A DNA stretch of 64,000 nt, from contig JASLMV010000015.1 of the NCBI GenBank assembly GCA_030746435.1, positions 124-64,123 on the forward strand, given 5' to 3'. Position numbers and translations under genes: made by a program. The stretch's first letter is position 1. Each line of letters opens with the position of its first letter. Shown here one piece after another: positions 6,108-57,880 of this stretch. A model generated the notes under the pieces. That model was not told the DNA's origin, did not search any database, and worked only from the letters and a program-made list of their open reading frames with translations. Source of the DNA: Gammaproteobacteria bacterium. Lineage in GTDB: Bacteria; Pseudomonadota; Gammaproteobacteria; Steroidobacterales; GCA-2729495.

Positions 6108-6296
6108 GTCTCTGTAACGCCTTATCCCTAGCGAAGTTGACACCACAATACCTGATTTTCCCCCTGCCGGAGAGCCCGCCGGGCCGGTTACTTATGTTTA
6201 AAAGTGTGACATCGGCCAGCCTGCAAGGGGGGCAATCTCCCTAGAATCAGTGGGATAACCATGCGGGCAGCCCCCTGCAGGGGGCCTTGCAAGTAT

Positions 6297-7622
6297 ATGC
6301 GAAGAGTCAAGATAGATACGGCCAACCTTATAGCTGGAATGTACGTTGCCCAGCTCGATCGCCCGTGGCTGGAGACACCGTTCCTGTTCCAGGGTTTTGA
6401 GATTCGGGACGATTCGGAAATCGATCTCCTGAAACACTATTGCCGCCATGTGTATATTGACGTCATGCGCGGCAGCGTATCCGAGGAAGAAATCAAGAAA
6501 TACACCGATCGATCCGGCACGGAAGTGGCGCTGAAAACCGGCCAGTACAAACCCAAAGTAGCGCCCAGGCCAACGCTAAAGCACCATATTCTGAGTGCGC
6601 TCAGCAAAATCGACCCAACTGGCCGCATCGCTCACCAGCTTGAAGGTTCCAGAACCTATCGGATCAAGACACCAATCAAGCGGGAAATGCCGCAGGCAAT
6701 GGCAGCCTATGAAGTTGCAATGATCACGATGAACAATGTGCTGGAGCATGTGCGGGAAGGGCGCACTGTCGACGTGGGCCAAGTGCAGGAAGCTGCCGGG
6801 CCGATTATAAACAGTGTCCTGCGTAACCCCGGCGCTATGGGCTGGTTCGTTCTGCTGAATAAGCGTGACGAATATGCCTACAGCCACTCGATTGCTTCTT
6901 CGGTATGGGCAGTTGTGCTCGGTCGCCACCTGGGCTTTGATCATGCGGCGCTGGAAATGCTCGCACTCGGCGGCATGCTGCTCGATATTGGCAAGGCGTG
7001 CATCCCGGAAGCCCTTTTGCGGAAAACCGACAAATTGACCAATGTCGAAAAAGACCTGTTGGCCCGCCATGTCGAATACGGGCTCGAATTGGTTAGTGAC
7101 TATCCTGGTATCGGCCGCGAAGTGCTCGACATGATAGGTAGCCATCATGAACGGCTCGATGGCTCAGGTTATCCCGACGGCTTGCAGGGCTCTGATATCC
7201 ACGCATACGGGCGTATTGCCGGTCTGGTCGATTGCTATGACGCGATGACCGGCAACAGGCCCTATGCAGCGGCCATGTCTTCATATGACGCGGTTTGTGA
7301 ACTTAATGCGTTGGCTGAAGTGCATTTTCAGAAAGAACTGGTCGAGCAGTTTGTGCAGGCGCTGGGGATGTTTCCGACGGGGAGTATTGTCGAGCTCAAT
7401 AGCGGCGAGGTCGGGATTGTGGTCGAGCAGAACCGCGTCCGCCGGCTGCGCCCGAAGGTGATGCTGGTGCTGAGTCCGGACAAACAGCCCCTGAAGAAAA
7501 ATCCTACTGTTGATCTCCGTAAAGTATCGGGTGATGCAAGCAAGCGAAACTCCAGGTGGATACTCAAGGGCTACGAATCTGGTGCATTCGGAATAGATCC
7601 CGGCGACTACTTCATCGTCTAG
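6297..7622 (+). CDS. DUF3391 + HD-GYP domain protein (HD dyad reads LD)
   Basis: N-terminal GMYVAQLDRPWLETPF (DUF3391 type). HD-GYP blocks HSIASSV, LLDIGK, HHERLDGSGYPDGL, DCYDAMT. ATG at 6297 preferred over 6261. Confidence 0.85.
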   Translation: MRRVKIDTANLIAGMYVAQLDRPWLETPFLFQGFEIRDDSEIDLLKHYCRHVYIDVMRGSVSEEEIKKYTDRSGTEVALKTGQYKPKVAPRPTLKHHILSALSKIDPTGRIAHQLEGSRTYRIKTPIKREMPQAMAAYEVAMITMNNVLEHVREGRTVDVGQVQEAAGPIINSVLRNPGAMGWFVLLNKRDEYAYSHSIASSVWAVVLGRHLGFDHAALEMLALGGMLLDIGKACIPEALLRKTDKLTNVEKDLLARHVEYGLELVSDYPGIGREVLDMIGSHHERLDGSGYPDGLQGSDIHAYGRIAGLVDCYDAMTGNRPYAAAMSSYDAVCELNALAEVHFQKELVEQFVQALGMFPTGSIVELNSGEVGIVVEQNRVRRLRPKVMLVLSPDKQPLKKNPTVDLRKVSGDASKRNSRWILKGYESGAFGIDPGDYFIV

Positions 7623-7638
7623 CCGGCGATTCCCGAAA

Positions 7639-8919
7639 ATGGCTACCAGGATAAAAAACTTAAGCGAGCTTCTGGTCGAGATTGACAGGCTGCGTTCGGG
7701 CGCTGCCGGTGCATCGGTTGGCCTGATGATCGGGGAACTGCAGGGGCTGAAAAAAATCAATGCGCGGCATGGTTACGGGACAGGTGATGCCGCTATCGAG
7801 GTTTTCCACGAAAGAATAAGGGGTGTGGTACACGATAGTGACCTTCTGGTTCGGATAAATGGCAAGAAGTTTGCGCTGATCGTGAGCGACGCTTCACACG
7901 ATGGGCATGCGCTGGCGACAGCGGAGAAAATTGCCTCGCTGGCGGAAGAATGGATCGTTATCAAGGATGTGCGGTTGCGGCTTACTGTAAATATGGGGGT
8001 CTCCCTGTTCCCCTCGCTGGCAGATTCTCCCGAGGTGCTGTTGGCGCAGGCTGAAGCAGCGCTGGAGCGTTGTATAGCATTGCATGAGCGCTTCATCCTT
8101 TGGCGGCCTGATATCAACAACGGTTCGGCCGTGCAGACCCACCCGCTGTTCGATGCAAAGAGCGCGATAGATAACGGTGAGTTTCGTCTGCACTATCAAC
8201 CGAAAGTTGACTTGCAAAGCGGGGATACTGTGGGCGCAGAAGTGCTCGTCCGCTGGCAGAGCATGGATGGGCTGATCGCGCCGGGCAGTTTCCTGAACGA
8301 GATAGAGCGGTCGCGGACCGTTGCGCCGCTATTGCGTTTCGTAGTCAACAGCGCTTCCAGGGAAATGGCTCGCTGGATACGGTGGGCCCCGGATTTCACA
8401 GTCGCAATTAATGCGACTCCTACCGATATTGAAGATATTGATCTTGTCGATGTGCTGGCCGACGTCCTGGACATGTGGGGGTTGGATCCCAAGCACCTTA
8501 TTCTCGAGCTGACCGAAACGACGCTCATGCACGATATAGACAAGGGCATCGAAACCCTGCAGAAACTTCGTGAATTCGGCGTACGCACATCTATAGATGA
8601 TTTCGGCACCGGCTATTCCAGCCTCGCCTATCTTCGGCAGTTACCCGTTGACGAAATTAAGATAGACCGGTCTTTCGTATTGCGGATACTCGAAGATGAG
8701 ACCGACCAGCACATAGTTGAGTCGCTTGTCGCCCTCGCCCAGGCCATGGGTCTGCGGGTTGTAGCCGAAGGCATCGAAAGCAAGGCGGTTGCCATCGCGC
8801 TTGCCGGCATGGGCTGTGATTTGGGCCAGGGTTTTCATTTTGGCCATCCGGTCATCGCCAGGGAGTTCGAAGACCGCTGGCTGCGTGGCAACCACGGGCA
8901 ATCCTCGGCCAGCGCCTGA
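7639..8919 (+). CDS. Degenerate GGDEF + EAL domain protein (probable c-di-GMP phosphodiesterase)
   Basis: The GGDEF position reads RINGKKFALIV. EAL-domain blocks are intact: YQPKV, ILELTE, AINATP, DDFGTGYSSLAYL, KIDRSF, VAEGIE, GQGFHFG. Confidence 0.85.
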   Translation: MATRIKNLSELLVEIDRLRSGAAGASVGLMIGELQGLKKINARHGYGTGDAAIEVFHERIRGVVHDSDLLVRINGKKFALIVSDASHDGHALATAEKIASLAEEWIVIKDVRLRLTVNMGVSLFPSLADSPEVLLAQAEAALERCIALHERFILWRPDINNGSAVQTHPLFDAKSAIDNGEFRLHYQPKVDLQSGDTVGAEVLVRWQSMDGLIAPGSFLNEIERSRTVAPLLRFVVNSASREMARWIRWAPDFTVAINATPTDIEDIDLVDVLADVLDMWGLDPKHLILELTETTLMHDIDKGIETLQKLREFGVRTSIDDFGTGYSSLAYLRQLPVDEIKIDRSFVLRILEDETDQHIVESLVALAQAMGLRVVAEGIESKAVAIALAGMGCDLGQGFHFGHPVIAREFEDRWLRGNHGQSSASA

Positions 8920-9048
8920 CCCGCTATCGTCCGGTTGCCGCGCCGGGTTCCACTTTTCGGTCATCTTAGTTTCCTCACCTGCTTCGAACAATTCCTATGG
9001 GGTATGCTTGGCCGCAATACCAAGAACCAAGCAGGTGGGAGAATAGCC

Positions 9049-10026
9049 ATGTCAGATTTAGTTCCCGAAGGTTACAAGGGTTTTACGCGGCGCCAAATGC
9101 TGGCCGGGGCCGGCGGAATAGCGGGCGCAGCCGCGCTGGCAGGGTGCGCACAGGAACAGGCAGACAAACCGCTCGCGGCGGGCCATGCGTCACTGGACCT
9201 CGACGATCCGGAAGGCAACCTCAAAGCTTTAATTAAACTGCAGGCCGATTTGTCCGGAGCTGACGCGATCGGCGGTTTCGGGGGCGAAGTCTGGGGCTGG
9301 GTGCCAGGTGAGGGTAATCGCTTGTTGTTCAAGAGTTATGGCATCGGCGCGAGCCATGTCGAACGTGTCGACAACGGCTGGCGGTTCTACCATCGCGAAG
9401 TCATGTACTACCTGGACCCCAAGACGGGCGAGATCGTGCACGACTGGCTGAACCCCTATACCGGAAGGCGTGTAGAAGTGCTGCATATCCTGAATGATCC
9501 GGTGCATCGCTTTTACGCAATCAGCGGTGGACCGTTTTCCGCACCGTGGCCCTATACCGTCATGGGCGACGACCTGGTGTTTCGTATCAGCGTGTTCGCG
9601 TTCCGGGATTCGGTGCTGCCACGCAAGGAATATCCGCTGCATTCACCCGATGACCATTACCAGGCATCGGAACTGTGGATGATGAACGGTCGCGTCAGCG
9701 AGGTGATGAACCCCGATATTACTTCGGCAAGTTGTGCAACGTCGTGGGCGAGGGTAGGGCAGTGGTTGCCGTTCATGGAGATGGGCAACCGGCACGGCGT
9801 CATGGTCTACCACAGCGATGCCTACAAGCTGCTTAATGGCCTGGACGATATTCCGCCTGCTATACGGGCCTATACAGAGAAGCATCATCCCAAGTATCTG
9901 GAATCGCCGAAGACATGGCAATCGCTCGCCGGCAACCAGAGCCAGATGACGGTCTCGAAAATAGAGATCGACGCTCGCTGGGATAGCGATGTACGCCCGG
10001 TCGGCAGCGTATTTGAAAAAAGCTGA
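9049..10026 (+). CDS. Tat-exported DUF1838-like protein (paralog of 23642..24526)
   Basis: Tat motif FTRRQMLAGAGG followed by LAGCA. Blocks YYLDPKTGEIVHDWLNPYTGRRVEV shared with the second copy. ATG at 9049 follows GGTGGGAGAA. The DUF1838 assignment is from memory. Confidence 0.5.
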   Translation: MSDLVPEGYKGFTRRQMLAGAGGIAGAAALAGCAQEQADKPLAAGHASLDLDDPEGNLKALIKLQADLSGADAIGGFGGEVWGWVPGEGNRLLFKSYGIGASHVERVDNGWRFYHREVMYYLDPKTGEIVHDWLNPYTGRRVEVLHILNDPVHRFYAISGGPFSAPWPYTVMGDDLVFRISVFAFRDSVLPRKEYPLHSPDDHYQASELWMMNGRVSEVMNPDITSASCATSWARVGQWLPFMEMGNRHGVMVYHSDAYKLLNGLDDIPPAIRAYTEKHHPKYLESPKTWQSLAGNQSQMTVSKIEIDARWDSDVRPVGSVFEKS

Positions 10027-11003: not shown

Positions 11004-12197
11004 TCAGGCAATAGCTTCGAGGTCGGGGGCATCTGTTCCGGGGCCCCCTGAATGGCGGGCACGGATGATCGGGTTGCGGCGGCTCGCGATTACCAGCTGC
11101 AACTCGTCCGTTTGCCCACCGTTTCCGGATGTGACCGCAATACGCGGGGTCAGCGGCCAGCAGTCGTCCTGTGAGCAGACCATGCCGATAGACCCGTCCA
11201 GCAGTTCAACCCAGGTTCCGGTCGGGTAAATACCCATGGCATGGATAAAATCCTGGAGGAGCGCATTGTCGAACTTGGAACCTCGCTGACCGTTAAGGTA
11301 CCGAAGCGCCGTATGTGCCGAGATCGCAGGTGCATACCGCCGGTCCTGCGTAATTGCGTCAAAGGTATCCGCGATTCCGGCAATGCGTGCGTACAGGGGA
11401 ATTTCGGTACCGCGTTGCTGCTGCGGATAGCCGGTACCATCGAAACGTTCGTGATGGTTACTGATCATATCTACAACATGCTCCGGAACTTCTTCCAGTA
11501 GTCGCATAATGTCCAGCCCGTGGCAAACATGCTTGCGCACCAATCCAAATTCATGGGGCGTAAGGTTCTCGGACTTGGCAAGGATTGTTATCGGCACTTC
11601 CAGTTTGCCAATGTCGAGCAGCAGTCCGCCGAGCGCCAGTTCAAGCAGTGCCGGGCGATCGAAACCAAGGTGGTGGCCAAACACGGCCGCAACGACGGCT
11701 GTGCCAATGGCACGGCGATAGAGATAGGCGGCCGAAGGTTCGGTCCTTAGGAGCCAGATGACGGCATCCGGACAACGTTGAATACTTTCTATCAACGGTA
11801 CAAGGGCAGTGTTCAGTGCCTCGAGGTCGGGCAACCGGCCGGTGCGCACATCGCGCATCATCTGGCGCACGGAGTCTGTCAGGGCGCCAAGGGCCGGCCG
11901 CGCCCACGGCAGTTCCTCGCCGACACTGTGGCGGTCGACGCGCGGCGCCAGTGCAGATACCGGAACAGCCTCGAAAGGCACCACGATATCCTGCGGCTCT
12001 TCGCTCTTGAGCGGATCTATATAGACGTAGGTGCAGAAACGCTGGATTTTCTCGATCTGTCGTAAGTCGCGCACGTAGAAACCACCCGGCGGAAACGGGG
12101 TATGGAGCCACAGACGATCGAGTGCCGCGACGTACATACCGGGTCGCAGACGATCTGCCTTCAAGGCAACCAGATGGTCTTCGCGTGCTTTGCCCAT
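11004..12197 (-). CDS. DUF3391 + HD-GYP domain protein, more degenerate paralog
   Basis: GMYVAALDRLWLHTPF; LLLDIGK; HHERFDGTGYPQQ; DTFDAIT. The first conserved His block reads RRAIGTA instead of xHSxxxx. Confidence 0.85.
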   Translation of the reverse strand: MGKAREDHLVALKADRLRPGMYVAALDRLWLHTPFPPGGFYVRDLRQIEKIQRFCTYVYIDPLKSEEPQDIVVPFEAVPVSALAPRVDRHSVGEELPWARPALGALTDSVRQMMRDVRTGRLPDLEALNTALVPLIESIQRCPDAVIWLLRTEPSAAYLYRRAIGTAVVAAVFGHHLGFDRPALLELALGGLLLDIGKLEVPITILAKSENLTPHEFGLVRKHVCHGLDIMRLLEEVPEHVVDMISNHHERFDGTGYPQQQRGTEIPLYARIAGIADTFDAITQDRRYAPAISAHTALRYLNGQRGSKFDNALLQDFIHAMGIYPTGTWVELLDGSIGMVCSQDDCWPLTPRIAVTSGNGGQTDELQLVIASRRNPIIRARHSGGPGTDAPDLEAIA

Positions 12198-12638: not shown

Positions 12639-13256
12639 TTAGAAATTCCAGCGCGCGCCCAGTTGCCACTGATCGACCTGGTACTCCAGGTCGTCGTCAT
12701 CGACATCGGTAACTTCGTAGCTAAAGGTTGCCGCGAAAGCATCACTGAAATTCCAAACCAGCCCCAGGTCTGTTGACGTACCGCCCTCATAGTTGCCCAG
12801 CAGGTATCCGAGGCGGCCGTAAACTTCCAGCGAATCGGTGACGTTGCTGCGCAACCCTATCAACAGGACCGGGCCATCGAAATCGACTTTGCCGAAGCCC
12901 TCGAGTTCGGCTTCATCATCGCGGTATTGAAAGCTGAGATCGAAGGTGGTGTTTTCGCCGACCTCTTTAATCGTACCGATCGAAATCTCAAAAGTATCGA
13001 TCTCCAGGTCCGGGCCGCTGATATCTTCTTCAAGTCCCGTGACAGCGGCCTGCAACAAAATACTGTCACTTACGACCAGGCTTCCCTCGATATCATATCC
13101 ACCAATATCGATACGGCTATCCGGCAACTCTGTGCCTTCGACATCGCCTCCGCTTATGGCTATTTCGAGGTAGTTGTAATTGGGCAGTTCGGCCATGGCC
13201 GAACTTGAAAAGAGCGCTACGACGCCCGCGGTTACAGCGATTGATTTGGTATTCAT
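12639..13256 (-). CDS. Small outer-membrane beta-barrel protein
   Basis: Signal peptide MNTKSIAVTAGVVALFSSSAMA/E. Alternating-hydrophobicity strands. C-terminal ...GARWNF with terminal Phe. Confidence 0.7.
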   Translation of the reverse strand: MNTKSIAVTAGVVALFSSSAMAELPNYNYLEIAISGGDVEGTELPDSRIDIGGYDIEGSLVVSDSILLQAAVTGLEEDISGPDLEIDTFEISIGTIKEVGENTTFDLSFQYRDDEAELEGFGKVDFDGPVLLIGLRSNVTDSLEVYGRLGYLLGNYEGGTSTDLGLVWNFSDAFAATFSYEVTDVDDDDLEYQVDQWQLGARWNF

Positions 13257-13667
13257 CGAAAAAATCCCCCGGACAGCCTGTGAACATGGGCTGCGCTGGA
13301 TGCGCATACCTGTGGTCGATTATCGGGGCATGGCTGGCCGTAGGCAACACGGTGAAAGACTTTGCTGCTGACGCGTCCGGAGAGCGGGTTCGGCCTCACG
13401 TTGCGTTACGCTACAATGCTCCGGTCTGAGCCGCCAAGGCCTATGGTCTAAACCACGAATAGCATTTGCCCGGATACGGCTCCCTCAGCCTAACCCTGCC
13501 AAAGCGCAAGCCACTGCTTGTTACAATTGTGTCGTTTTTTGGCAACACTAAATATAAACGGCTGTAATACTAAGGCAAACAAGTCAAAAGTTTGGTTTTC
13601 AGGGGCCAAACTCTTGATAACTTGTAAAAAATTTATTTGAGTGATAAAAGCCACGCGAAGCCGTGAC

Positions 13668-13742: not shown

Positions 13743-14651
13743 TTAACCTGACGTGAATTCGATGACCCGGCGGGCCAGCTCCGCCGCGGCATCCTCCACG
13801 ATATAGAAGCTCGTGTCCTCGATTATTGCGTGTGGCTGGCCCGCCGCACCGGGTATGTGGTCGATGAGTTTTTGCGGTCCCATCGGACCCGCGCGGAAAC
13901 TATCCGCAAACAGCGTTAGTACCGGTTTATCGTAGCTAGCCAGCTTTTCCCAGGCAGCGAGGTTAGCGGCGCGTGCCGGACTGTCGAGGTCTATCGGCAG
14001 AATCATCGGGAAGCGCCTGGGCCCGGTCAGGTAAGACTGGTCCGGGTAAGGAGCGTCGTAGGCGGCGATAACTTCGGGCGGTAGTTTCTGGACCACACCA
14101 TCGTTGACCATGTCACCCTGCGGAAAGCGCGGCATAGCCAGCATTCGTTTGCGCCAGTCGCGAAACCAGGCATGACCCGAAGAAGGGTCGCCGGTGGGTA
14201 ACTGCGTATTCAGTAGCACGAGGCGGGCGAAATAATGGGGTTCCTCTACGGCCAGCCGCAGTCCGAAGAATCCGCCCCAGTCGAGCAGAAAACCGGTCGC
14301 ATCGCGGATGTCCATCTGGTCCAGGAAGGACTTGAGCCAGCCTATGTGCCGGTTAAAGCTATAGTCTTCTTCCTTGCGTAACTTGTCCGACCGGCCGAAG
14401 CCAATGTAATCGGGGGCCACGATCCGAAAGCCGGCCGCTGTCAGCTGCGGGATCATTTCCCGGTAGATATATACCCAGCTCCCCTGGGTCGGCATCAGCA
14501 ATATAACTGGCGCAGTGCTGTTGCCCTCGTCCAGGTAGTGCATACGCAAGGACCCGTAACGATCATCCGGGACTTCAAGGTAGTTAGGCCTGAAGTCATA
14601 ACCAGGCAGTTTCGCGAACCGTTCGTCAGGTGTTCGTAGCGCTTCGGTCAT
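13743..14651 (-). CDS. Haloalkane-dehalogenase (DhlA-type, HLD-I) homolog lacking catalytic His and the HGEP loop
   Basis: Collinear with DhlA as I recall it (RTPDERFAKLPGYDFRPNYL, HYLDEGN, APDYIGFGRSDK, LLDWGGFFGL). HGEPTW is replaced by PTQGSW and AGHFVQE by TSFYIVE. Confidence 0.8.
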   Translation of the reverse strand: MTEALRTPDERFAKLPGYDFRPNYLEVPDDRYGSLRMHYLDEGNSTAPVILLMPTQGSWVYIYREMIPQLTAAGFRIVAPDYIGFGRSDKLRKEEDYSFNRHIGWLKSFLDQMDIRDATGFLLDWGGFFGLRLAVEEPHYFARLVLLNTQLPTGDPSSGHAWFRDWRKRMLAMPRFPQGDMVNDGVVQKLPPEVIAAYDAPYPDQSYLTGPRRFPMILPIDLDSPARAANLAAWEKLASYDKPVLTLFADSFRAGPMGPQKLIDHIPGAAGQPHAIIEDTSFYIVEDAAAELARRVIEFTSG

Positions 14652-14757: not shown

Positions 14758-15738
14758 CTAGTCCGGCGATGTTTCACTTTCGTTTGCAATGGCAACCTGT
14801 GCATCCAGCCATTCCCGGACATCGACAGCAATTTCCGCACCGGCCTCCTGTACAGCCATATGGCCGACACCCGGGTAACTAATGAACTTGATCGATGCCG
14901 CATTCTCCAGCAGATGCATAACCTCTTCCGCTTGTTCAAACTTGGCGGTGGTGTTGGCCTCACCCCACAACAGCAACACGGGTATATCCAGTTGCCTGTA
15001 AACCGATTCGATATCTCCCGAATCGTACTGGCGCAGGCGATCGAGTTGTGCTTCGCGTTGCCCGTCACGCATCCACAGTTCATACCAGCGGTCGATGAGT
15101 TCATCACTCAGTTCGCGCTTGGTTCCGAATCCCGATCTCAGCATGAATTCCGGTAATGCCTTCGGCATGATGTACTTCAGGATGTAGGCCGAATCCGGTA
15201 CGTTACCGCGCGCTTTTTGCTGCTTGCCCTCCAGCGAACCCGGGCTGAGCAGTATCATTCGTTTGACGCGGCCCGGGTTGCGGTGATCGTACAGGACTGA
15301 CACGGTGCCGCCGAGCGACGTTCCTGCCATCGTGAATTTATCGATTCCCATCGCATCGATAAACTTTTCCGTAATTTCCATCGTGCGTTCGAGCGTGTAA
15401 TCACCGGTTGGATCCGGACCGGTCAGGCCGTGGCTGGTCATGTCAAAGCGGACCACCCTGTAGGAATCTTTCAGCGCTTCTACCCACGGTGCCCAACCCA
15501 GCAGGCTTGCGAAATTTGCATGTACGAGGACGATAACGGGCGCCTCATGAGGCCCTTCGTCGCGATAATGTATGCGTACACCGGCGACGTTCATGAAACG
15601 GGATTCCTGGTTGCCGTATTTTGTCTCCAGCTCGGCTGCGGGTATGTCCCGGTAAATCCATGCGGCGATAAGGAAGCCAATCAGGGCAATGGCAGCCAGT
15701 CCACACAGCATCCATGCCACTACTCGCAGAAATTTCAT
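14758..15738 (-). CDS. Membrane-anchored alpha/beta-fold hydrolase
   Basis: N-terminal TM helix (VVAWMLCGLAAIALIGFLIAAWIY). Nucleophile elbow GTSLGG. C-terminal GVGHM. Confidence 0.8.
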   Translation of the reverse strand: MKFLRVVAWMLCGLAAIALIGFLIAAWIYRDIPAAELETKYGNQESRFMNVAGVRIHYRDEGPHEAPVIVLVHANFASLLGWAPWVEALKDSYRVVRFDMTSHGLTGPDPTGDYTLERTMEITEKFIDAMGIDKFTMAGTSLGGTVSVLYDHRNPGRVKRMILLSPGSLEGKQQKARGNVPDSAYILKYIMPKALPEFMLRSGFGTKRELSDELIDRWYELWMRDGQREAQLDRLRQYDSGDIESVYRQLDIPVLLLWGEANTTAKFEQAEEVMHLLENAASIKFISYPGVGHMAVQEAGAEIAVDVREWLDAQVAIANESETSPD

Positions 15739-15869
15739 GCCGGTGCTCTCCTTAATAGTAGGGGTGGGCTATTTCGCCGGTTGCGGCAGCTCTTCTTGAT
15801 TCCCGGGCGCCAGGTCAGCCCGGATAATAGCGCGTCTGCTGTTAATGTGGCTATCGTTACCAGTGAAGG

Positions 15870-15899
15870 TTGACTATTTGAAGATCGCAAGCCTATATA
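15870..15899 (+). promoter_or_regulatory. Candidate sigma70 promoter for the ABC/CbiX-like operon
   Basis: TTGACT (15870-15875), an 18-nt spacer, then TATATA (15894-15899). Lies 25 nt upstream of the ATG at 15925. Confidence 0.3.
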
Positions 15900-15924
15900 G
15901 GATAAAGCCGGATAAATTTAAATA

Positions 15925-17070
15925 ATGTTTATAGCACTGCGCGATCTCAAGTTTGCCAAGGGCCGATTTCTGCTGATGGGCCTGGTGGTCGCGCTTGTCG
16001 CATTCCTTATGACATTTCTTAGCGGAGTCGCTGCCGGTCTGATCAGGAATAATATTTCCGGATTGATACAGCTGGATGTCACGCATCTTTCCTTCGAATA
16101 CAACAACAACAAGCCCAGCTACCGGAACAGCATGATCGAGCGCGAAATGTGGGAAGGTTGGCAGGCATTGCCGGGCGTGCTGAGCGCCGAGCCGATGGGC
16201 CATACGATGTTTGGTGCCCGGCAGATGAATGATGCGCCCCTCGACGACGTTGTCCTGTGGGGTATACAGCCCGGCTCCTTTCTGGAGCCGGAGGTTCTGG
16301 AGGGCGAGGCGCTGGGTAGACTGGAAAATGGCGTGATTATTTCAGAGCTCCTCGTCGATCGTGGCCTGAAATTGGGTGATAAATTTATTCTGGACCGCGT
16401 GCTTACCGAACTTGAAGTCGTAGGCATTGTCGGCGAGCACACTATCGGCCATGTCCCGATCGTTTATACGCCTATACGCAAGTGGCAGGAGGCCACTTAC
16501 GGTCCGCCCGGCGGCCCCCCGCCCGGCGAGGTTTTGCCCGATATCCTGTATGACTTTGCAACCATCATTGCGTTGCAGGTATCGCAGGATTTCAATCAGA
16601 ACAGGATGGAAAACGCGGATATGGAACTGGGCACACTAACCATCGACAAGGTCGATGCTTATGAGGCCTCCAGCGGCTATATCGAGGAAGTGCGTACCGT
16701 GCAGATGATCCAGGCTTTCCTGACCGTTATTTCCGCCGTCGTTATCGGCGCATTTTTTACCGTCTGGACTATCCAGCGCACCAAGGAAATCGGCCTTATC
16801 AAGGCGTTGGGCGGTTCGAGCGCCTATCTGCTCAGGGATGCCCTGTCCCAGGTGATTATCCTGATGGTGATGGGAACCGTGGTTGGAACATCGATAGCAA
16901 TCTGGTTGGGTGGCGGTATCGAAACAACCGGTGGCTTTTTCGTGCTGGACCGGGATACCGTCATCGCTTCCAGTATCCTGCTGATTGTTGCTGGCCTGAT
17001 CGGCAGCGCGCTGTCGATCAGGCTGATTACGCGTGTTGATCCGATTATTGCGCTTGGTCGCGAACAATGA
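15925..17070 (+). CDS. FtsX/MacB-type (type VII) ABC permease, HrtB-like
   Basis: One TM helix, an about 200-aa periplasmic domain, then three TM helices. N-terminal ...FLSGVAAGLIRNNIS and C-terminal ...RVDPIIALGREQ resemble HrtB as I recall it. The stop overlaps the ATPase start (ATGA). Confidence 0.7.
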   Translation: MFIALRDLKFAKGRFLLMGLVVALVAFLMTFLSGVAAGLIRNNISGLIQLDVTHLSFEYNNNKPSYRNSMIEREMWEGWQALPGVLSAEPMGHTMFGARQMNDAPLDDVVLWGIQPGSFLEPEVLEGEALGRLENGVIISELLVDRGLKLGDKFILDRVLTELEVVGIVGEHTIGHVPIVYTPIRKWQEATYGPPGGPPPGEVLPDILYDFATIIALQVSQDFNQNRMENADMELGTLTIDKVDAYEASSGYIEEVRTVQMIQAFLTVISAVVIGAFFTVWTIQRTKEIGLIKALGGSSAYLLRDALSQVIILMVMGTVVGTSIAIWLGGGIETTGGFFVLDRDTVIASSILLIVAGLIGSALSIRLITRVDPIIALGREQ

Positions 17071-17744
17071 GCCTGGTTTTCGAACATGTTTCGCTTGAGC
17101 TGGGCGACGGCGACCAGAAAGTTAAGGCACTCGACGATGTATCGGGAAGCGTTTCCCCCGGTGAACTTGCAGCCGTGGTCGGGCCGTCCGGTGTCGGTAA
17201 ATCCAGCCTGCTGGCGGTATGCGGTGGACTGCGCAGCCCGACCGATGGCGAAATCAGCATCAATGAACAGTCAATTTCCGGTCTTTCGCCGGCACAACTG
17301 ACCCGCATCCGACGGGACTACATCGGTTTCGTATTTCAGCAATCCAATCTTGTGCCTGCACTGACATCGGTTGACCAGTTGCTGCTGGTGCCCAGTCTGC
17401 GGGGCAGGAGGCCTACGGCCACTGACCGGGAGCACGCGCTTGCACTGCTTGCGGAAGTGGATATGTCACACCGTGCCGATCGCCGGCCGGACCAGTTGTC
17501 GGGTGGTGAGCGTCAGAGGGTGGGTATCGCGCGGTCACTGATGAGCGATCCAATGGTCCTGTTGGTGGATGAGCCGACCTCAATGCTCGATCATGCGCGT
17601 GGTCATGCCATCGTGGAACTGTTGGCTACCCGGTGTGTCGAACACAAGGTCGCCGCACTCATGGTTACACATGATGCGACTATGCTTGATTCGGCCAGCA
17701 GTGTTATGCATATAAAAGATGGCCAGATCACGCAAGAGCATTAA
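17067..17744 (+). CDS. ABC transporter ATP-binding protein, HrtA/LolD-like
   Basis: Walker A GPSGVGKSS, signature LSGGERQRV, Walker B LLVDEPTSMLD. The block IGFVFQQSNLVP is typical of the MacB/HrtA class. Confidence 0.9.
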   Translation: MSLVFEHVSLELGDGDQKVKALDDVSGSVSPGELAAVVGPSGVGKSSLLAVCGGLRSPTDGEISINEQSISGLSPAQLTRIRRDYIGFVFQQSNLVPALTSVDQLLLVPSLRGRRPTATDREHALALLAEVDMSHRADRRPDQLSGGERQRVGIARSLMSDPMVLLVDEPTSMLDHARGHAIVELLATRCVEHKVAALMVTHDATMLDSASSVMHIKDGQITQEH

Positions 17745-17753
17745 GGTTATAAG

Positions 17754-18854
17754 ATGAAAATACTGCATCTGCATTTATTTGTGCGCTTGTCCTGCGTTTC
17801 CCTCGCGGCGCTCGTCTGCGTGTTGGCCAGCCCCGGCGGAGTAAATGCCCAGGAGCACCTTGCGCACCAGCACACGGCTATTCCGGAGATGGATGTCGAT
17901 GGCAGACGGCTGGATCCCAATGCCAAGCAACACAATATGAACGATGCGCAGCTCGCCGCGCTGCGCGAGAAAATTGCCCTGTACCGTGCGCTGACCGACA
18001 ACGAAGTGCGCATGAACATGGCGCTGATGGGACCTAACTATGAGTGGTACGTCAGCGATACAGGAAAACAGGGGGATATCGGCGTCCTCATTCTCGCGCA
18101 CGGTATAGGCGAGAACAGCGACAGACTGCTCGTCGACAGGCTGAAGCCCATGGCAGAGCGTTGGCCGACGGCGGTCAGCTTTGGTATGGCGATGATGATG
18201 TCGTCGCCTATCCAGTCTTCGGTAAACGACCTGACCGCACGGGGCGTCAAAACCATAGTGCTGGTGCCGACTTCGGTAACACAACACAACTCGCTGACAC
18301 GGCAATGGCAATATATTTTCAATATGCGGGATGAGTCGTCTTATCTCGATGTGCCGCGCGTAAATACGGATGCAAATATCCTGATGAGCTCGCATTTCGA
18401 GGACCATCCACTGATCTCGGAAGCGCTACTTGAATACACCATGGAGCAGAGTGAAGATCCATCCAATGAGGTGGCCATCCTGGTGGGCCACGGGCCGGAG
18501 GATATCGAAGACAATATCCCCGACCTCGAGTTACTGCAGGCACATGTCGACTATATTGCCGCTGCAGCCCCCTTCAGCGACGTTAAAGTCATAAACCTGC
18601 AGGATGATGCCTATCCGCCGATCCGCAAATCGAATGTCAAGAAACTCAGGCGCTGGGTTACCAGTGCGCAAAGGCAGGGCAAAGAAGTGATTGTGACGGT
18701 CGTCACCAGCGGGAGTTTCGGCGTGCAGGCGCATATCAGAGAAGACCTGCGGGGGCTCGACTACCGCTTTGCCAAAAAGGGTTTAGTGGAGCACCCTAAC
18801 TATCTCAAGTGGCTGGAGAAAGCCGTCGAGGAGCGGCTCGCTGCCGCTGACTGA
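17754..18854 (+). CDS. Exported two-domain CbiX-like (class II chelatase fold) protein, copy 1
   Basis: Signal peptide (...VLASPGGVNA/QEH). Two CbiX-type halves: GVLILAHGIGENSD...IVLVPTSVTQHNS and VAILVGHGPEDIEDN. Starts 9 nt after the ATPase stop. Confidence 0.6.
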   Translation: MKILHLHLFVRLSCVSLAALVCVLASPGGVNAQEHLAHQHTAIPEMDVDGRRLDPNAKQHNMNDAQLAALREKIALYRALTDNEVRMNMALMGPNYEWYVSDTGKQGDIGVLILAHGIGENSDRLLVDRLKPMAERWPTAVSFGMAMMMSSPIQSSVNDLTARGVKTIVLVPTSVTQHNSLTRQWQYIFNMRDESSYLDVPRVNTDANILMSSHFEDHPLISEALLEYTMEQSEDPSNEVAILVGHGPEDIEDNIPDLELLQAHVDYIAAAAPFSDVKVINLQDDAYPPIRKSNVKKLRRWVTSAQRQGKEVIVTVVTSGSFGVQAHIREDLRGLDYRFAKKGLVEHPNYLKWLEKAVEERLAAAD

Positions 18855-18865
18855 CGGTCAAACAT

Positions 18866-19471
18866 TCAGTCGCCGTTTTCTTCTGCCTGATCCGGTGTAC
18901 TGCTCCTCCGGGTAATCCATGTGCCTGCAGCACCCAGCAACAGCAATGCTGTAACAATAAAGGCGAGCGTCATCGTCGTTAGCTTCCCTATCTTGGAGGC
19001 GACCGCCAGATTGGCTGCAATCTCCACCTGTTGCGGCCAGGTATTTACTACCCATAGCAGGTTAATGTTTTCCAGGTAGTCAAAGACAGCAGGCATCATT
19101 AACAAGATGAAATATTTTCGGGCCAGGAATGCTTTATACAGGTCTATAGAAAAGTTTCGCAAGGCAAATGCACACAGGCTTGCAATCGTTAGTGAAGCAA
19201 AGAATGGAAATACAAAGTCTACCGCCTGGAAGATGATGTACAGGTCAAATGCCTGATCGGTATAACCGTTGAGTTGCTGAAATATTTCAGCCGGTGTCAA
19301 TGCGTTCTGCATATCAAATGGCGGAACGCCACCGGAAACTGCCGGAAACTCATTGCTGAGACGTTGCAGTATTAGAAGCGAACCCACAAATACTACGAAG
19401 ACAATGAGAAACTTCTGCCACGTACTGGAACATTCAACGATCAGGCCATTCAGTCTGGCAAGCATATCCAA
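18866..19471 (-). CDS. Polytopic membrane protein of unknown function
   Basis: About 4 predicted TM helices. I recognise no motif. Downstream of, and on the same strand as, hydrolase 19546..20511. Confidence 0.5.
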   Translation of the reverse strand: MDMLARLNGLIVECSSTWQKFLIVFVVFVGSLLILQRLSNEFPAVSGGVPPFDMQNALTPAEIFQQLNGYTDQAFDLYIIFQAVDFVFPFFASLTIASLCAFALRNFSIDLYKAFLARKYFILLMMPAVFDYLENINLLWVVNTWPQQVEIAANLAVASKIGKLTTMTLAFIVTALLLLGAAGTWITRRSSTPDQAEENGD

Positions 19472-19545
19472 TCCCCCGCTAGACCAATGTGGAAGAAACG
19501 CCGGTCATATTACCACCGCCCGTTACCCGGCCAGTGTGCCAATCC

Positions 19546-20511
19546 TTAGCGGCGGCTGGCCCAGAAGGACCGGGCGTCGCGGATGGCAAATGCCGCATCC
19601 GCGGGGTTTTCCTCATGCACGAAATGCCCGGCATCCTCCACCAGGACCAGTTGGCTGCCAGAAATCATTTTCTGTAACTTGTCCGCCTCATCGACTGTTT
19701 TACGTCGGTCATCAACACCCCAGACGATAAGGGTCGGAATACGCACATCGCCCAATAGCTCAATTTCCCGGCCCGGTTTGAAGTTACTCATCAAGGCGGT
19801 GACACCTTCGATGTAACCCTCGCTGCGAGTTGTCAGCATAAGCTCATCGAGCCTTGCTTGCGTGAAAGTTTCCGGAATGACATACGAACTCCTCAGCAGG
19901 TTCTCCCTGAACTCCCGTTCCGCGAAGGTCCTTGCGACCAGCCGGGGAAATGGAAAAATCAGGTACTGGGTTGTCGGAGGAATGCTTGTGCTGATTATGC
20001 CGGGATTGAACAGGATCATGCCGACTACCACCGGAGAGTTAATCGCAACGCGTACCGCATGCGTACCACCCATCGAATGGCCGCCGATGACAACCTCATC
20101 GAGTCCAAGGGCATCGATAAACTCGATTACCGTTTTGGCCTGTGTGGCGTTGTTATAGTCGCGGTCGGCCGGCTTGTCAGAGAGGCCAAAGCCCGGTAAA
20201 TCGAGTGCAATAACGTAGTGATCGGCTGCGAGGACTTCGGCAACAGGCTGAAAAGACATGGCGGAATTGGCGAAGCCGTGGAGCAGGACAATGGATGGCC
20301 GGTCCTCGTCGGGCTCGCCCCAGGTTCGATAGCGTAGCTGCAGACCGTCGGCGGTGATGAACTTGTCATCGGGAGCTGCAAGCTGTACCGAGGGAACGCC
20401 GTCGTCGTAAGGCCAGTATGCGAATATTATGAGTCCGGTATACACAACCAGCAGCAGTCCGAATATGGTGACCAGAATCCTGCCTAACATGGGAGTACCG
20501 TGAATTGTCAA
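19546..20511 (-). CDS. Membrane-anchored alpha/beta-fold hydrolase (second copy of the module)
   Basis: N-terminal TM helix (ILVTIFGLLLVVYTGLIIFAYW). LLHGFANS, GGHSMGG, DAGHFVHEE. Confidence 0.8.
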   Translation of the reverse strand: MTIHGTPMLGRILVTIFGLLLVVYTGLIIFAYWPYDDGVPSVQLAAPDDKFITADGLQLRYRTWGEPDEDRPSIVLLHGFANSAMSFQPVAEVLAADHYVIALDLPGFGLSDKPADRDYNNATQAKTVIEFIDALGLDEVVIGGHSMGGTHAVRVAINSPVVVGMILFNPGIISTSIPPTTQYLIFPFPRLVARTFAEREFRENLLRSSYVIPETFTQARLDELMLTTRSEGYIEGVTALMSNFKPGREIELLGDVRIPTLIVWGVDDRRKTVDEADKLQKMISGSQLVLVEDAGHFVHEENPADAAFAIRDARSFWASRR

Positions 20512-20576
20512 CCTGAGGCTTTTTTAGACACTATGCAACAGCATGTCAATGAAGACTCCCGGAGCCTGCCAACCTT

Positions 20577-20612
20577 GTTTACATTCTGTTGACATTGCCG
20601 GGACTTGCCGGG
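20577..20612 (+). promoter_or_regulatory. Two adjacent direct-repeat pairs upstream of CbiX-like copy 2 (candidate response-regulator site)
   Basis: GTTTACATT-ct-GTTGACATT (20577-20596, 11-bp period; contains TTGACA), then TTGCCGGG-ac-TTGCCGGG (20595-20612, 10-bp period). Lies 53-88 nt upstream of the ATG at 20665. Confidence 0.3.
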
Positions 20613-20664
20613 CGTGCGGTTTGCTGGTATCCGTACGGGCTGCAGATCTTTTGGGGCACGGAAT

Positions 20665-21795
20665 ATGACAAGCGTGTACACGTTGGAAAATCATCTTATA
20701 AATATTCTGACGGGCTGCATTGCATCAGTCGCATTATTGGCCGGCTGTGCAACGACACCGGCCGATACCGATACGGGGGCTGTCGAGACACCGGTTGCGG
20801 CTCCTTCGCATGGCGCGCATATGAACCATGCCCGGCCGGATGAACTCGGGCGCCTGCTCTATGGCATGGAGCATTCCGCGGACGAGGCCATGCTGGACGA
20901 AATCAGGGTGAAAGGGCTGTTCCCGGGCGCCTCCTCGAACGAGCAAATCCTGACCATGATGAACAATATGGGATCCAACTATACGTGGCCCGCCAGCGAC
21001 GAAAGCCTGCGGGGCGATTCGGGCATCCTTATTCTGGCGCATGGTTTTGGCGATCACGGTGACCAGGTATTACGTGAACAGATGCTCGGCACGGGCACGG
21101 AGGTTCCTATCAGCTTCGCGTTCGGGATGAGCATGATGATGTCCGACCACATCCAGCTTGGTCTGGATGACCTGACGGATTCCGGCGTTAGGGATATCGT
21201 AGTTATTCCTGCCGTGAGCACCCGGCATAACACGCTAAAACGGCAGTGGGACTATGTGTTCGCGTTGCAGGATGAACCGGAATACGCCAGCGTACCGAGG
21301 GTCAGTTCGAATGCGCGGTTGCATTTTGCCAAACCGCTGGAAGACCATCCCCTGGTTGGGGAAATCATTGCCGACTATAGCGCCGAGATCAGCCAGAACC
21401 CGCCGGTCGAGGAGGTCATCATCGTCGGGCACGGCCCCGTCGACGCCGGCGATAACCAGCAACAACTGGACATGATGAATAACCTTGCAGATTACGTTCG
21501 CGAATCGGCTGATTATGCAGCCGTGCATGTTGCGACCCTGCAGGATGATGCGCCCGTCGAAGTTCGCAGAGCCAATGTTAATAGATTACGGGAACTGATC
21601 ACCAAAGCCAGCGAGGCGGGGCGGAATACGCTTGTGGTGACCAACCTGCTCGGAACACGGATGGTCCAGTCGAGCCTGCGGCGCGATTTGCGTGGCCTCG
21701 GGTATCGCTTTAACTTCAAGGGGCTGATCCAGCACGATAACTTTATCGAGTGGATAAACGCGTCAGCGCAAGAAAAGCTGGCTGCTATCAAGTAA
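20665..21795 (+). CDS. Exported (lipoprotein) two-domain CbiX-like protein, copy 2
   Basis: Lipobox VALLAGCAT. SGILILAHGFGDHGD...IVVIPAVSTRHNT and VIIVGHGPVDAGDN. Clear paralog of 17754..18854. ATG at 20665 preferred over TTG at 20605. Confidence 0.6.
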   Translation: MTSVYTLENHLINILTGCIASVALLAGCATTPADTDTGAVETPVAAPSHGAHMNHARPDELGRLLYGMEHSADEAMLDEIRVKGLFPGASSNEQILTMMNNMGSNYTWPASDESLRGDSGILILAHGFGDHGDQVLREQMLGTGTEVPISFAFGMSMMMSDHIQLGLDDLTDSGVRDIVVIPAVSTRHNTLKRQWDYVFALQDEPEYASVPRVSSNARLHFAKPLEDHPLVGEIIADYSAEISQNPPVEEVIIVGHGPVDAGDNQQQLDMMNNLADYVRESADYAAVHVATLQDDAPVEVRRANVNRLRELITKASEAGRNTLVVTNLLGTRMVQSSLRRDLRGLGYRFNFKGLIQHDNFIEWINASAQEKLAAIK

Positions 21796-23641: not shown

Positions 23642-24526
23642 ATGGGCGAGCATCAAGTTAAGAAATTCGGAGAGTTGAGCCGACGGGACATCATACTTGG
23701 CGGTGCGGCTGCACTGGTGACAAGTTCTTTGCCGCTTAGGGCGGCTGACGGGCTGGATCTGGAAGACCCGTGGGACCGGTTAACAGCACTGGCCAAGTTA
23801 CGCGGCAGCACGGACGGCAGCACGGTAATGTGGTGGATGAAAGGCGTACGTTTCGGCGTCGTCGACCACATCGTAACGCCCATGTTCGGGATGCTGATAG
23901 GTAGTTTTCAGCGGATGCGGCCGCTACCGGGCAAAGGCTTTGAGCTGAATATGCTGGAGATGGGTTACTTCACCGATCTCGAGACCGGCGAAGTACTGGA
24001 TACCTTCCGTAATCCCTACAACGGTAAATTGTGTGAGGTACCCGAGCAGCGCCTCGGACCCTATCCGGTACTGATGACGCCTACCGGAGTCATTCTGCCT
24101 GACGTGCCGCCGTTCAACGAAGTCGAACTCAGTACCCGGATCGGCCCTGTAATCGTGCAGGGTGACGATGTCTGGATTCGCGACGACAGCACGGTCAAGG
24201 TTGATTCAGATCACCCGATGATGGGTAAGCATACCTACAACGAAATGGTTACCTATCGCGGCAAGCTTAGCGATATTAATAATCCGGATCTCGCATCGGC
24301 ACCCGCCGAGATCAGTTTCCAGAGTATTACGAGCTGGCGGGCCTGGCTGCAGGCCGATGGAGTTGGCGGCCACACGACAGGGCGGGCAAATGGCATGAAA
24401 ATATCCAGCGTCGACGAGTTTCCGGTTGAATATCTTGCAGCTGCGCGTGAGCGCCACCCGGATATCATCGCGGACCCTGATGCGGCAATGGACGCCGTTC
24501 CGGCCGCCCCCGGCGGACATGACTGA
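23642..24526 (+). CDS. Tat-exported DUF1838-like protein (paralog of 9049..10026)
   Basis: Tat-like SRRDIILGGAAALV...LRA/AD. YFTDLETGEVLDTFRNPYNGKLCEV parallels copy 1. Confidence 0.5.
   Translation: MGEHQVKKFGELSRRDIILGGAAALVTSSLPLRAADGLDLEDPWDRLTALAKLRGSTDGSTVMWWMKGVRFGVVDHIVTPMFGMLIGSFQRMRPLPGKGFELNMLEMGYFTDLETGEVLDTFRNPYNGKLCEVPEQRLGPYPVLMTPTGVILPDVPPFNEVELSTRIGPVIVQGDDVWIRDDSTVKVDSDHPMMGKHTYNEMVTYRGKLSDINNPDLASAPAEISFQSITSWRAWLQADGVGGHTTGRANGMKISSVDEFPVEYLAAARERHPDIIADPDAAMDAVPAAPGGHD

Positions 24527-53274: not shown

Positions 53275-57880
<4,606 letters not shown>

Follow-up and report, generated by a model that had tools for sequence, protein, structure and literature searches.

An operon of three genes in a 64,000-nucleotide stretch of contig JASLMV010000015.1, from a gammaproteobacterial genome, encodes an ATP-binding cassette (ABC) pump and an exported protein, here called X1. 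The whole stretch is referred to as the window and all coordinates given for it are positions within it. Judged by sequence, the permease and the ATPase are true relatives of HrtB and HrtA, which form the haem-detoxifying pump HrtBA of Gram-positive bacteria, and X1 is modelled with the fold of the class II chelatases. What is new is that HrtBA occurs in a diderm and that a periplasmic partner of chelatase fold is dedicated to it. Its inferred function, to which we give about an even chance, is that of a proteobacterial haem-extraction pump with X1 as its dedicated periplasmic partner. A prediction made earlier from the sequence alone (the original prediction) had not recognised this gene combination as a described system, and no description of it was found in the searchable literature.

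The pump operon and its conservation

The permease carries the Pfam domain FtsX and the ATPase the Pfam domain ABC_tran (113 bits). The best match of the permease in the PDB was chain 7w78_B, HrtB of Corynebacterium diphtheriae (E 1.2e-34), which aligned end to end. The match to MacB reached only 1.6e-6, and LolC/E was not among the PDB matches listed. For the ATPase the best PDB match was HrtA (7w78_A, E 2.9e-46), with LolD marginally behind at 4e-44. Both subunits therefore rank nearer to HrtB/HrtA than to other type VII ABC systems (MacB, LolCDE, FtsEX, YbbAP), the ATPase by a narrow margin. Identity between the permease and C. diphtheriae HrtB was 28% over the part containing the first transmembrane helix (TM1) and the extracytoplasmic domain (ECD) and 41% over TM2-4. 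About 37 extra residues are present in the ECD (about 193-238), several positions of which are invariant.

The PDB entries 7W78-7W7D are structures of C. diphtheriae HrtBA, in which Glu219 of HrtB is the axial ligand of the haem, His163 stacks against the porphyrin and the site is surrounded by L35, L39, L223 and P301 (PMC9271180). Alignment with HrtB gives E255, H176, V35, L39, V259 and F338 as the respective counterparts in the window permease. These positions were counted in 51 distinct permease orthologues drawn from loci related to that of the window. E255 and H176 were each found in 51/51 and L39 in 50/51. Position 35 was Leu in 42 of the 51 (Val in the window), position 259 was Val in 48 and position 338 was Pro in 44 (Phe in the window). 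No conserved cluster of Met or Cys was seen in the pump. By alignment, then, the haem pocket is kept in the proteobacterial permeases, the ligand and stacking residues being invariant and L35, L39 and P338 present in most. The original prediction had called the pump HrtBA-like, and the top PDB matches and the conserved pocket residues bear this out.

Conservation of the operon was examined by scanning one genome per GTDB species. This gave 243 stretches with a relative of X1, of which the best 79 distinct loci (numbered with the prefix L) were examined. These best 79 of the 243 all came from metagenome-assembled genomes (MAGs) of Gammaproteobacteria, labelled Chromatiales/Chromatiaceae, and of Alphaproteobacteria. 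Neighbouring genes were counted by tblastn with the window proteins, using loci in which the X1 orthologue was at least 49% identical and, as the denominator of each count, those with enough flanking sequence. The genes hrtB and hrtA lay directly upstream of X1 on the same strand in 44/44 loci. The association that had been noticed in one genome is thus conserved beyond it, and the order hrtB-hrtA-(tetR)-X1 is, on gene order, shared by about 50 species of uncultured marine Gamma- and Alphaproteobacteria. In loci of alphaproteobacterial MAGs (L053:5684-11011, L054, L056) X-family genes stand on both sides of hrtBA, so that the parts are the same but differently arranged. The flanking genes in loci of the L053 type encode proteins 41% and 45% identical to X1, with a TetR gene downstream of the second; the wider context there (DUF4112, hydantoinases) was uninformative.

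No membrane-fusion protein or outer-membrane factor lies beside the pump in the window or in loci of the L002 and L005 types. In L001 (2051-7310) and the lineages of L021, L024-L030 and L033 an insertion of 5.4 kb separates H1, the hydrolase gene divergent from the pump operon, from hrtB. It encodes an adaptor of the resistance-nodulation-division (RND) type, an RND permease of multidrug type and an S-adenosylmethionine-dependent methyltransferase. The adaptor in these loci is paired with the RND permease. A heavy-metal (CusA/CzcA) assignment of the inserted RND permease was considered and rejected, as it scores as a multidrug type.

The genes of the region are collected in Table 1. The gene set, the ATGA overlap of 4 nt between the permease and ATPase genes and the 9 nt from the ATPase stop to the X1 start, as read from the open reading frames (ORFs), were all present as originally described, and X1 is closely coupled to the pump in translation. 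Sixteen contigs of independent marine metagenomes and the MAG GCA_030745335.1 have the same gene order, and the arrangement is therefore no artefact of assembly.

Table 1. Genes and intergenic region of the pump locus, in window coordinates (aa, amino acids; TM, transmembrane helix).
Feature	Position	Strand	Description
H0	13743..14651	-	Cytoplasmic alpha/beta hydrolase of haloalkane-dehalogenase type (NCBIfam NF002043); downstream of H1
H1	14758..15738	-	326 aa; predicted PlaF-like alpha/beta hydrolase with a single N-terminal TM; divergent from the pump operon
H1/hrtB intergenic region	15739..15924		Divergent spacer without the TetR operator-like palindrome of relatives
HrtB-like permease	15925..17070	+	381 aa; type VII ABC permease, four TM, ECD between TM1 and TM2
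HrtA-like ABC ATPase	17067..17744	+	225 aa; start overlaps the permease stop (ATGA)
X1	17754..18854	+	366 aa; predicted Sec-exported two-domain chelatase-fold protein; third gene of the pump operon
M201	18866..19465	-	199 aa; conserved membrane protein; convergent with X1
H2	19546..20490	-	Predicted TM-anchored PlaF-like alpha/beta hydrolase; divergent from X2; 314 aa in public calls, ORF to 20511
X2	20665..21795	+	X1 paralogue, predicted lipoprotein; 376 aa from the ATG of public calls at 20665, ORF from 20605

The exported proteins X1 and X2

X1 begins with a Sec-type signal peptide (…GGVNA/QEH), as read from the sequence, and X2 with a lipobox (LLAG/C, Ala at +2) that is found in about 7 of 13 X2 orthologues. 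Over 335 aligned residues the two proteins share 40% identity (E 1e-88), in agreement with the figure of about 40% estimated by eye in the original prediction. By sequence they are old paralogues present in many relatives; the counterpart of X2 in L005 is 51% identical to the window protein.

Both proteins had been proposed to consist of CbiX-type halves. A Pfam scan of X1 gave no match, and X2 scored 16.2 bits against Pfam CbiX (PF01903) without reaching the cutoff of 22. The NCBIfam model CfbA gave E values of 1.8e-4 for X1 and 7e-6 for X2, scores of 21-26 bits against a cutoff of 120. A confident AlphaFold (AF2) model of X1 was built from 30 homologues, with a predicted local distance difference test score (pLDDT) of 86.8 and a predicted TM-score (pTM) of 0.83. 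When this model was searched with Foldseek the first match was the periplasmic CbiK(P) of Desulfovibrio vulgaris (2xvz, E 1.9e-7), followed by Bacillus subtilis SirB (TM-score 0.71, normalised to the target), ferrochelatases (CpfC/HemH) and Salmonella CbiK. The top matches had target-normalised TM-scores of 0.56-0.71 and sequence identities of 11-14%. According to the model, X1 is a protein of two Rossmann-like alpha/beta domains flanking a cleft, the class II chelatase fold.

A profile of the X family was searched against 1.84 billion cluster representatives (clusters at 50% identity) and found 934 relatives at E ≤1e-3, so that X1 and X2 belong to a sizeable family of exported, divergent CbiX-like proteins. 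The relatives at E 1e-40 to 1e-47 include exported proteins of about 295 aa that pass Pfam CbiX; two such proteins are P0174 (37.6 bits) and P0181 (46.6 bits), with family-profile E values of about 1e-44 to 1e-47. Since the profile reaches proteins that pass CbiX, X1 and X2 can be placed in the CbiX superfamily, where they form a clade that is exported and divergent. Of the original claim, the chelatase fold therefore stands, with CbiK(P) as the top match, but Pfam CbiX itself was failed and the link to it comes only through the profile search.

Among 97 X-family members the invariant residues are H116-G117, G144-M145-x-M147-M148 (GMxMM), Q154, W185, Y187, H246-G247-P248, N254, Q283-D284-D285, R291 and N294. 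From their secondary-structure position those of X1 stand at the C-terminal ends of strands 1 and 2 in both domains, and in the model we infer that they line the interdomain cleft, as the same positions do in class II chelatases. In known chelatases we take the metal-binding His pair to lie within one domain (H10/H76 in SirB, H145/H207 in CbiK). The first His of each X domain (H116 and H246) is invariant. The positions expected for the second His are variable; at 327, His is confined to X1, while X2 has Glu and distant members have Lys. The chelatase His residues were mapped by the alignment range of NCBIfam CfbA and by secondary-structure position, not by structural superposition.

Proteins of the X clade are extended at the N-terminus by about 75 residues, and the mature N-terminus is rich in His and Met, with HxHHxH-type stretches in X1 orthologues. 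In Rhodospirillaceae MAGs (L058, L059, L062-L067, L070-L074, L077) the unit MDHSQ is repeated three to seven times in tandem directly after the signal peptide, a sequence that suggests metal capture. The context in which X genes are found consists of the pump, lipase-like hydrolases and cytochromes c, not of genes for sirohaem, cobalamin, F430 or haem biosynthesis. Where X genes occur in Rhodospirillaceae without a pump, neither haem nor copper genes were present in the neighbourhood, and the neighbours are housekeeping or unrelated genes (a tesA-ybbA-ybbP-like set, FIST, LigT, SnoaL-like, low-molecular-weight phosphatase). Some distant relatives have a setting of their own. In P0222 (L090:2595-5804) an exported CbiX-like domain is N-terminal in a TonB-dependent receptor whose gene adjoins a Fur gene, the P0181 gene (L085:2337-3221) adjoins a gene for a DtxR-type iron-dependent repressor, and further distant members carry a fused NosD, FmdE or dockerin domain.

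Proposed haem extraction and a possible role in metal handling

In the mechanism that we propose, the HrtB dimer would take haem or another metalloporphyrin sideways from the periplasmic leaflet of the inner membrane. In the pocket Glu255 would ligate it axially and His176 would cover it as a stacking lid. Binding of ATP by HrtA would then close the pocket and the ligand would be expelled. A Gram-positive cell would lose this ligand to the medium. In a diderm the expelled haem would fall back into a membrane unless it were caught, which makes X1 the obvious candidate acceptor. Soluble X1 would catch the ligand in the cleft lined by H116, H246, GMxMM and QDD; His and Met are a common pair of axial ligands of haem. 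With HrtBA of C. diphtheriae the haem is squeezed out when ATP binds and is captured in vitro by the hemophore HasA (PMC9271180), and the part of X1 would be similar to that of HasA in this experiment.

X1 may then hand the ligand to the lipoprotein X2, or it may exchange or remove the metal by means of its His/Met-rich tail. By analogy X2 could be a second station after X1, as LolB is after LolA. CbiK(P) is known to bind haem. FetB/IhtB of Porphyromonas gingivalis, an exported protein of CbiK type, binds metalloporphyrins and can act on porphyrins as a catalyst (PMC13065792). Given these two precedents, removal or exchange of metal by X1 is possible, although it is unsupported here. A full periplasmic relay, in which metal-loaded X1 takes haem from HrtBA, removes or swaps the metal and passes the product to X2 at the outer membrane, seems to us distinctly improbable. 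If it were true, no periplasmic (de)chelatase coupled to an extractor would have been known before it, and tetrapyrroles would be passed along in a bucket brigade similar to that of Lol. Cobalamin is another conceivable ligand of an exported CbiX-like protein.

Several points weigh against haem extraction with X1 as the acceptor. X1 and X2 both fail Pfam CbiX and no chelatase in the PDB was found with them by single-sequence or profile search, and the second catalytic His is not conserved (position 178 is Y, H or F). No outer-membrane exit route is encoded near the pump. A PDB search with the TetR protein encoded in related operons detected no closeness to HrtR, a haem sensor. One locus, L083, keeps H1, M201, H2 and X2 without hrtBA-X1, and Rhodospirillaceae carry X homologues without any pump. 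Finally, the His/Met-rich tails, the (MDHSQ)n repeats of alphaproteobacterial homologues and the invariant Met cluster resemble soft-metal sites.

The last of these points belongs to a different explanation, in which the system handles copper-type or other soft metals in the periplasm. X1 and X2 would bind ions through the His/Met tails and the cleft of GMxMM, His and Asp residues, and the ABC machine would either expel a metal complex or mechanically drive the release of metal from X1, much as transducers of FtsEX type act on their periplasmic partners. The tails and GMxMM, the occurrence of X-family members without a pump, and the setting of distant members, some beside Fur- or DtxR-type regulators and some joined to a TonB-dependent receptor or NosD, make this a serious rival. 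M145, M147, M148, H116, H246, D284 and D285 are all among the residues invariant in the family, and the three to seven MDHSQ units of the Rhodospirillaceae homologues presumably resemble the Met/His repeats of copper proteins of the CopA/PcoA type, for which a literature search gave no usable source. However, the pump retains the Glu, His, Leu and Pro residues of a porphyrin pocket and has no conserved Met or Cys cluster. The loci examined showed no genes for resistance to copper or other metals (CopA/B/C, CusF, multicopper oxidase, CueR/CusRS). The regulator belongs to the TetR type, for which organic ligands are the usual signal, and the inserted RND pair is of multidrug type and not of CusA/CzcA type. 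We consider metal handling unlikely, whether the pump expels a metal complex or only drives metal release from X1.

Haem extraction with a periplasmic acceptor can be set beside the known systems. In common with HrtBA of C. diphtheriae, Staphylococcus aureus and Lactococcus lactis, the pump has a four-TM permease of FtsX type with an ECD and a separate ATPase, keeps the axial Glu, the stacking His and the hydrophobic pocket, and has no membrane-fusion protein. It differs in its diderm proteobacterial host, in the longer ECD, in an operon that always includes the exported chelatase-fold protein, in the associated PlaF-like hydrolases and membrane protein M201, and in having neither HssRS nor ChrSA two-component control. 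The TetR gene and upstream palindrome of most related operons recall hrtRBA of L. lactis with its TetR-family haem sensor HrtR, but the order here is hrtB-hrtA-tetR-X1, the TetR has no specific similarity to HrtR and the window has lost both TetR and operator. MacAB-TolC and DevBCA-type exporters differ in that no cognate fusion protein or outer-membrane factor stands beside the pump here.

CbiK(P) of D. vulgaris likewise is exported and has the class II chelatase fold. Its identity to X1 is 11%, with no match at the level of sequence, and X1 adds the N-terminal extension and GMxMM, lacks a conserved second catalytic His and is tied to an ABC pump of exporter type, not to an importer operon. 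FetB/IhtB is an envelope lipoprotein that inserts Co or Mn into porphyrins, and a lipoprotein is also predicted for X2. FetB has 37% identity to Salmonella CbiK, whereas X1 and X2 have no detectable sequence similarity to CbiK, and the FetB locus has a TonB receptor and an ABC importer. LolCDE-LolA-LolB offers an analogy only: a type VII ABC extractor lifts a hydrophobic cargo from the outer leaflet of the inner membrane and passes it to a soluble periplasmic carrier and on to a paralogous outer-membrane lipoprotein. Cargo and carrier fold are unrelated to those considered here, and the hand-over from X1 to X2 is a proposal.

A review of 2024 states that HrtBA homologues had not yet been identified in Gram-negative bacteria, and a 2025 review of P. 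gingivalis gives a resemblance to HrtB of only 22% identity and 33% coverage. No paper on HrtBA homologues or on exported CbiX-like partners in Proteobacteria was found in the searchable literature. The clade of about 50 proteobacterial species described here carries pumps thought to be missing from Gram-negative bacteria. Its operon suggests how a diderm may cope with expelled haem, which would be left in the periplasm without an outlet were an acceptor not co-encoded, and it may show how haem leaves the inner membrane and is handed on in the periplasm. The hosts are abundant uncultured marine bacteria, and haem is a relevant source of iron for marine bacteria. The components are small, soluble or easily reconstituted and transfer of haem from the pump to X1 could therefore be assayed directly.

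Regulation, neighbouring genes and the rest of the window

A TetR gene lies between hrtA and X1 in 34 of the 44 loci. About 30 nt upstream of hrtB the relatives have a palindrome, CGACA-N3-TGTCG, for example TAGCGACAGCCTGTCGCTA, which was found in L001, L005, L009, L021, L024-L028, L033 and others. With up to two mismatches it occurs in 30/36 loci with TetR versus 2/14 without, the chance expectation being about 8% by our own calculation. The palindrome is probably the operator of the in-operon TetR, and in most relatives this repressor would act through it. The palindrome is absent from the spacer between H1 and hrtB in the window; as the window has neither TetR nor palindrome, its lineage would have lost both repressor and operator. 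The original observation that there was no regulator holds for the window scan, which found none, but it describes a peculiarity of this lineage. Homology of the TetR to HrtR was considered, and the PDB search gave no specific similarity. Its best named matches were fatty-acid-responsive regulators of FadR type and were weak and generic. Conserved residues of its ligand domain include H108, H132 and M71.

H1 and H2 both match Pfam Abhydrolase_1 (E 3e-21 and 1e-28, respectively). The GxSxG and GH motifs (GTSLGG and GVGHM in H1, GHSMGG and AGHF in H2) and the single N-terminal hydrophobic helix, all of which had been noted originally, are present in both. The helix has positive charges on its N-terminal side, from which the catalytic domains are predicted to face the periplasm. 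The best PDB matches of H1 were a lipase (4opm, E 1.5e-16) and PlaF (6i8w, E 6.7e-14, over residues 18-313 with the TM helix included). PlaF was the best PDB match of H2 (E 2.5e-22), residues 19-307 aligning with 10-297, again with the N-terminal helix included. Entry 6I8W is PlaF of Pseudomonas aeruginosa, a phospholipase A1 with an N-terminal TM anchor in the cytoplasmic membrane and a periplasmic catalytic domain, whose catalytic triad is S137/D258/H286. Both window proteins resemble it in the full-length alignment, which includes the TM and juxtamembrane helix, in the Ser/His motifs and in predicted topology, but the similarity is distant (E 1e-14 to 1e-22), and PlaF is not known to be tied to an ABC pump or to haem. 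Ser141 in the GTSLGG motif of H1 is conserved in 43 orthologues. H1 also has a conserved E260, and the acid residue of its triad may be a Glu. The suggestion that these hydrolases are chlorophyllases or pheophytinases was dropped; PlaF and lipase are among the best structural-database matches instead, and matches to BchO-type NCBIfam models were generic and far below cutoff. The PlaF-like hydrolases would act on the same leaflet as the pump and may repair or remodel its lipids.

M201, which the original prediction did not mention, is 51% identical to its counterpart in L005 and has only 59 clusters in a database of 5.8 billion proteins. The AF2 model (pLDDT 94.2) is an all-helical bundle. M201 had no Pfam match, and none of its fold matches in the PDB had an E value below 0.2. 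It contains no histidine, and its invariant polar residues (199-aa numbering) include FD-Q-N, D83, D129, E132-N133, K158 and K161.

How far these genes belong to the system was judged from their recurrence. A divergent H1 preceded the operon in 28/33 loci, and a convergent M201 followed X1 within 5 kb in 31/36. X2 was within 5 kb of X1 in 10/36 loci and H2 in 2/36, or in 7/30 when 10 kb was allowed. The divergent H2-X2 pair was present in four species only (the window, L007, L010 and L083), and the closest relative, L006, has X2 and not H2. H1 and H2 are 23% identical (E 3e-23). The original description of a mirrored duplicated module is thus sound for X1 and X2, which are paralogues, but not for the hydrolases. 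It may be that only hrtB-hrtA-X1 is a functional unit, that the hydrolases and perhaps X2 and M201 are mere neighbours, and that the mirror layout is coincidental; the low H1/H2 identity, the scarcity of H2 and X2 near X1, the absence of H2 from L006 and the separation of H1 from hrtB by a 5-kb insertion in some lineages all fit this. However, H1 and M201 are kept across proteins that are 50-65% identical, the H2-X2 pair recurs in four species, and L083 (1-5848) keeps the usual order of dihaem cytochrome c, cytochrome c′, H1, M201, H2 and X2 with the hrtB-hrtA-X1 block missing, so that the accessory genes persist without the pump. That all of these are bystanders we regard as rather unlikely.

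The hydrolases bear also on the weakest of the alternatives, a stress island for lipids or other hydrophobic compounds in which the pump extrudes lipids, fatty acids or xenobiotics and X1 and X2 are carriers that have nothing to do with tetrapyrroles; PlaF-like or lipase-like H1 and H2, which would remodel the periplasmic leaflet, the weak FadR-type matches of TetR, the RND permease, adaptor and methyltransferase inserted in one lineage and the adjoining dehalogenase-like H0 would suit it, but it leaves unexplained both the invariant haem-ligating Glu with its stacking His and a chelatase fold with conserved His, Asp and Met in the cleft, the lipid carriers LolA, MlaC and LptA have quite different folds, and we hold it to be very unlikely.

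In many relatives H1 is directly followed, on its own strand, by genes for cytochrome c′ (PF01322) and for a dihaem cytochrome c of 295 aa that has two CxxCH motifs (L005:3057-4377, L002, L009-L011, L014-L016, L018, L039, L041, L044 and others). Cytochrome c′ was found beyond H1 in 16/33 loci, often followed by the dihaem cytochrome c and H0. In the window the cytochrome pair is replaced by H0 and the gene for a small outer-membrane beta-barrel protein (12639-13307). H0 scored 339 bits against its NCBIfam model (cutoff 265) and has no signal peptide or TM helix in its sequence. It is found beyond H1 in L002, L006, L007, L014-16, L018, L022, L036 and L038 and is a recurrent neighbour whose membership of the system is uncertain.

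In the window, 38 ORFs were scanned for domains, about a dozen ORFs of at least 200 aa lying outside the scan. As had been stated originally, none of these 38 was recognised as a membrane-fusion protein, an outer-membrane factor, a TonB-dependent receptor or a transcription regulator. The nearest envelope genes are that for the small beta-barrel protein and one for a TPR/TonB_C protein (3382-4803). No Rfam element, such as a cobalamin riboswitch, was found across the whole window, and a scan for promoters and terminators gave nothing above shuffled expectation. The remaining scanned window is ordinary chromosome, with cyclic di-GMP enzymes, DUF1838, LptD, SurA, penicillin-binding proteins, MreB, GatAB and MetH. 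The flanks of the locus (6261-10026, 11004-12197, 23642-24526) hold two HD-GYP-type genes (DUF3391+HD_5), one GGDEF-EAL gene and two DUF1838 paralogues. The same cyclic di-GMP and DUF1838 genes also flank the L005 locus, so that the wider neighbourhood is syntenic too. MetH, the B12-dependent methionine synthase, is encoded at 54143-57880 on the forward strand, and the organism thus uses cobalamin.

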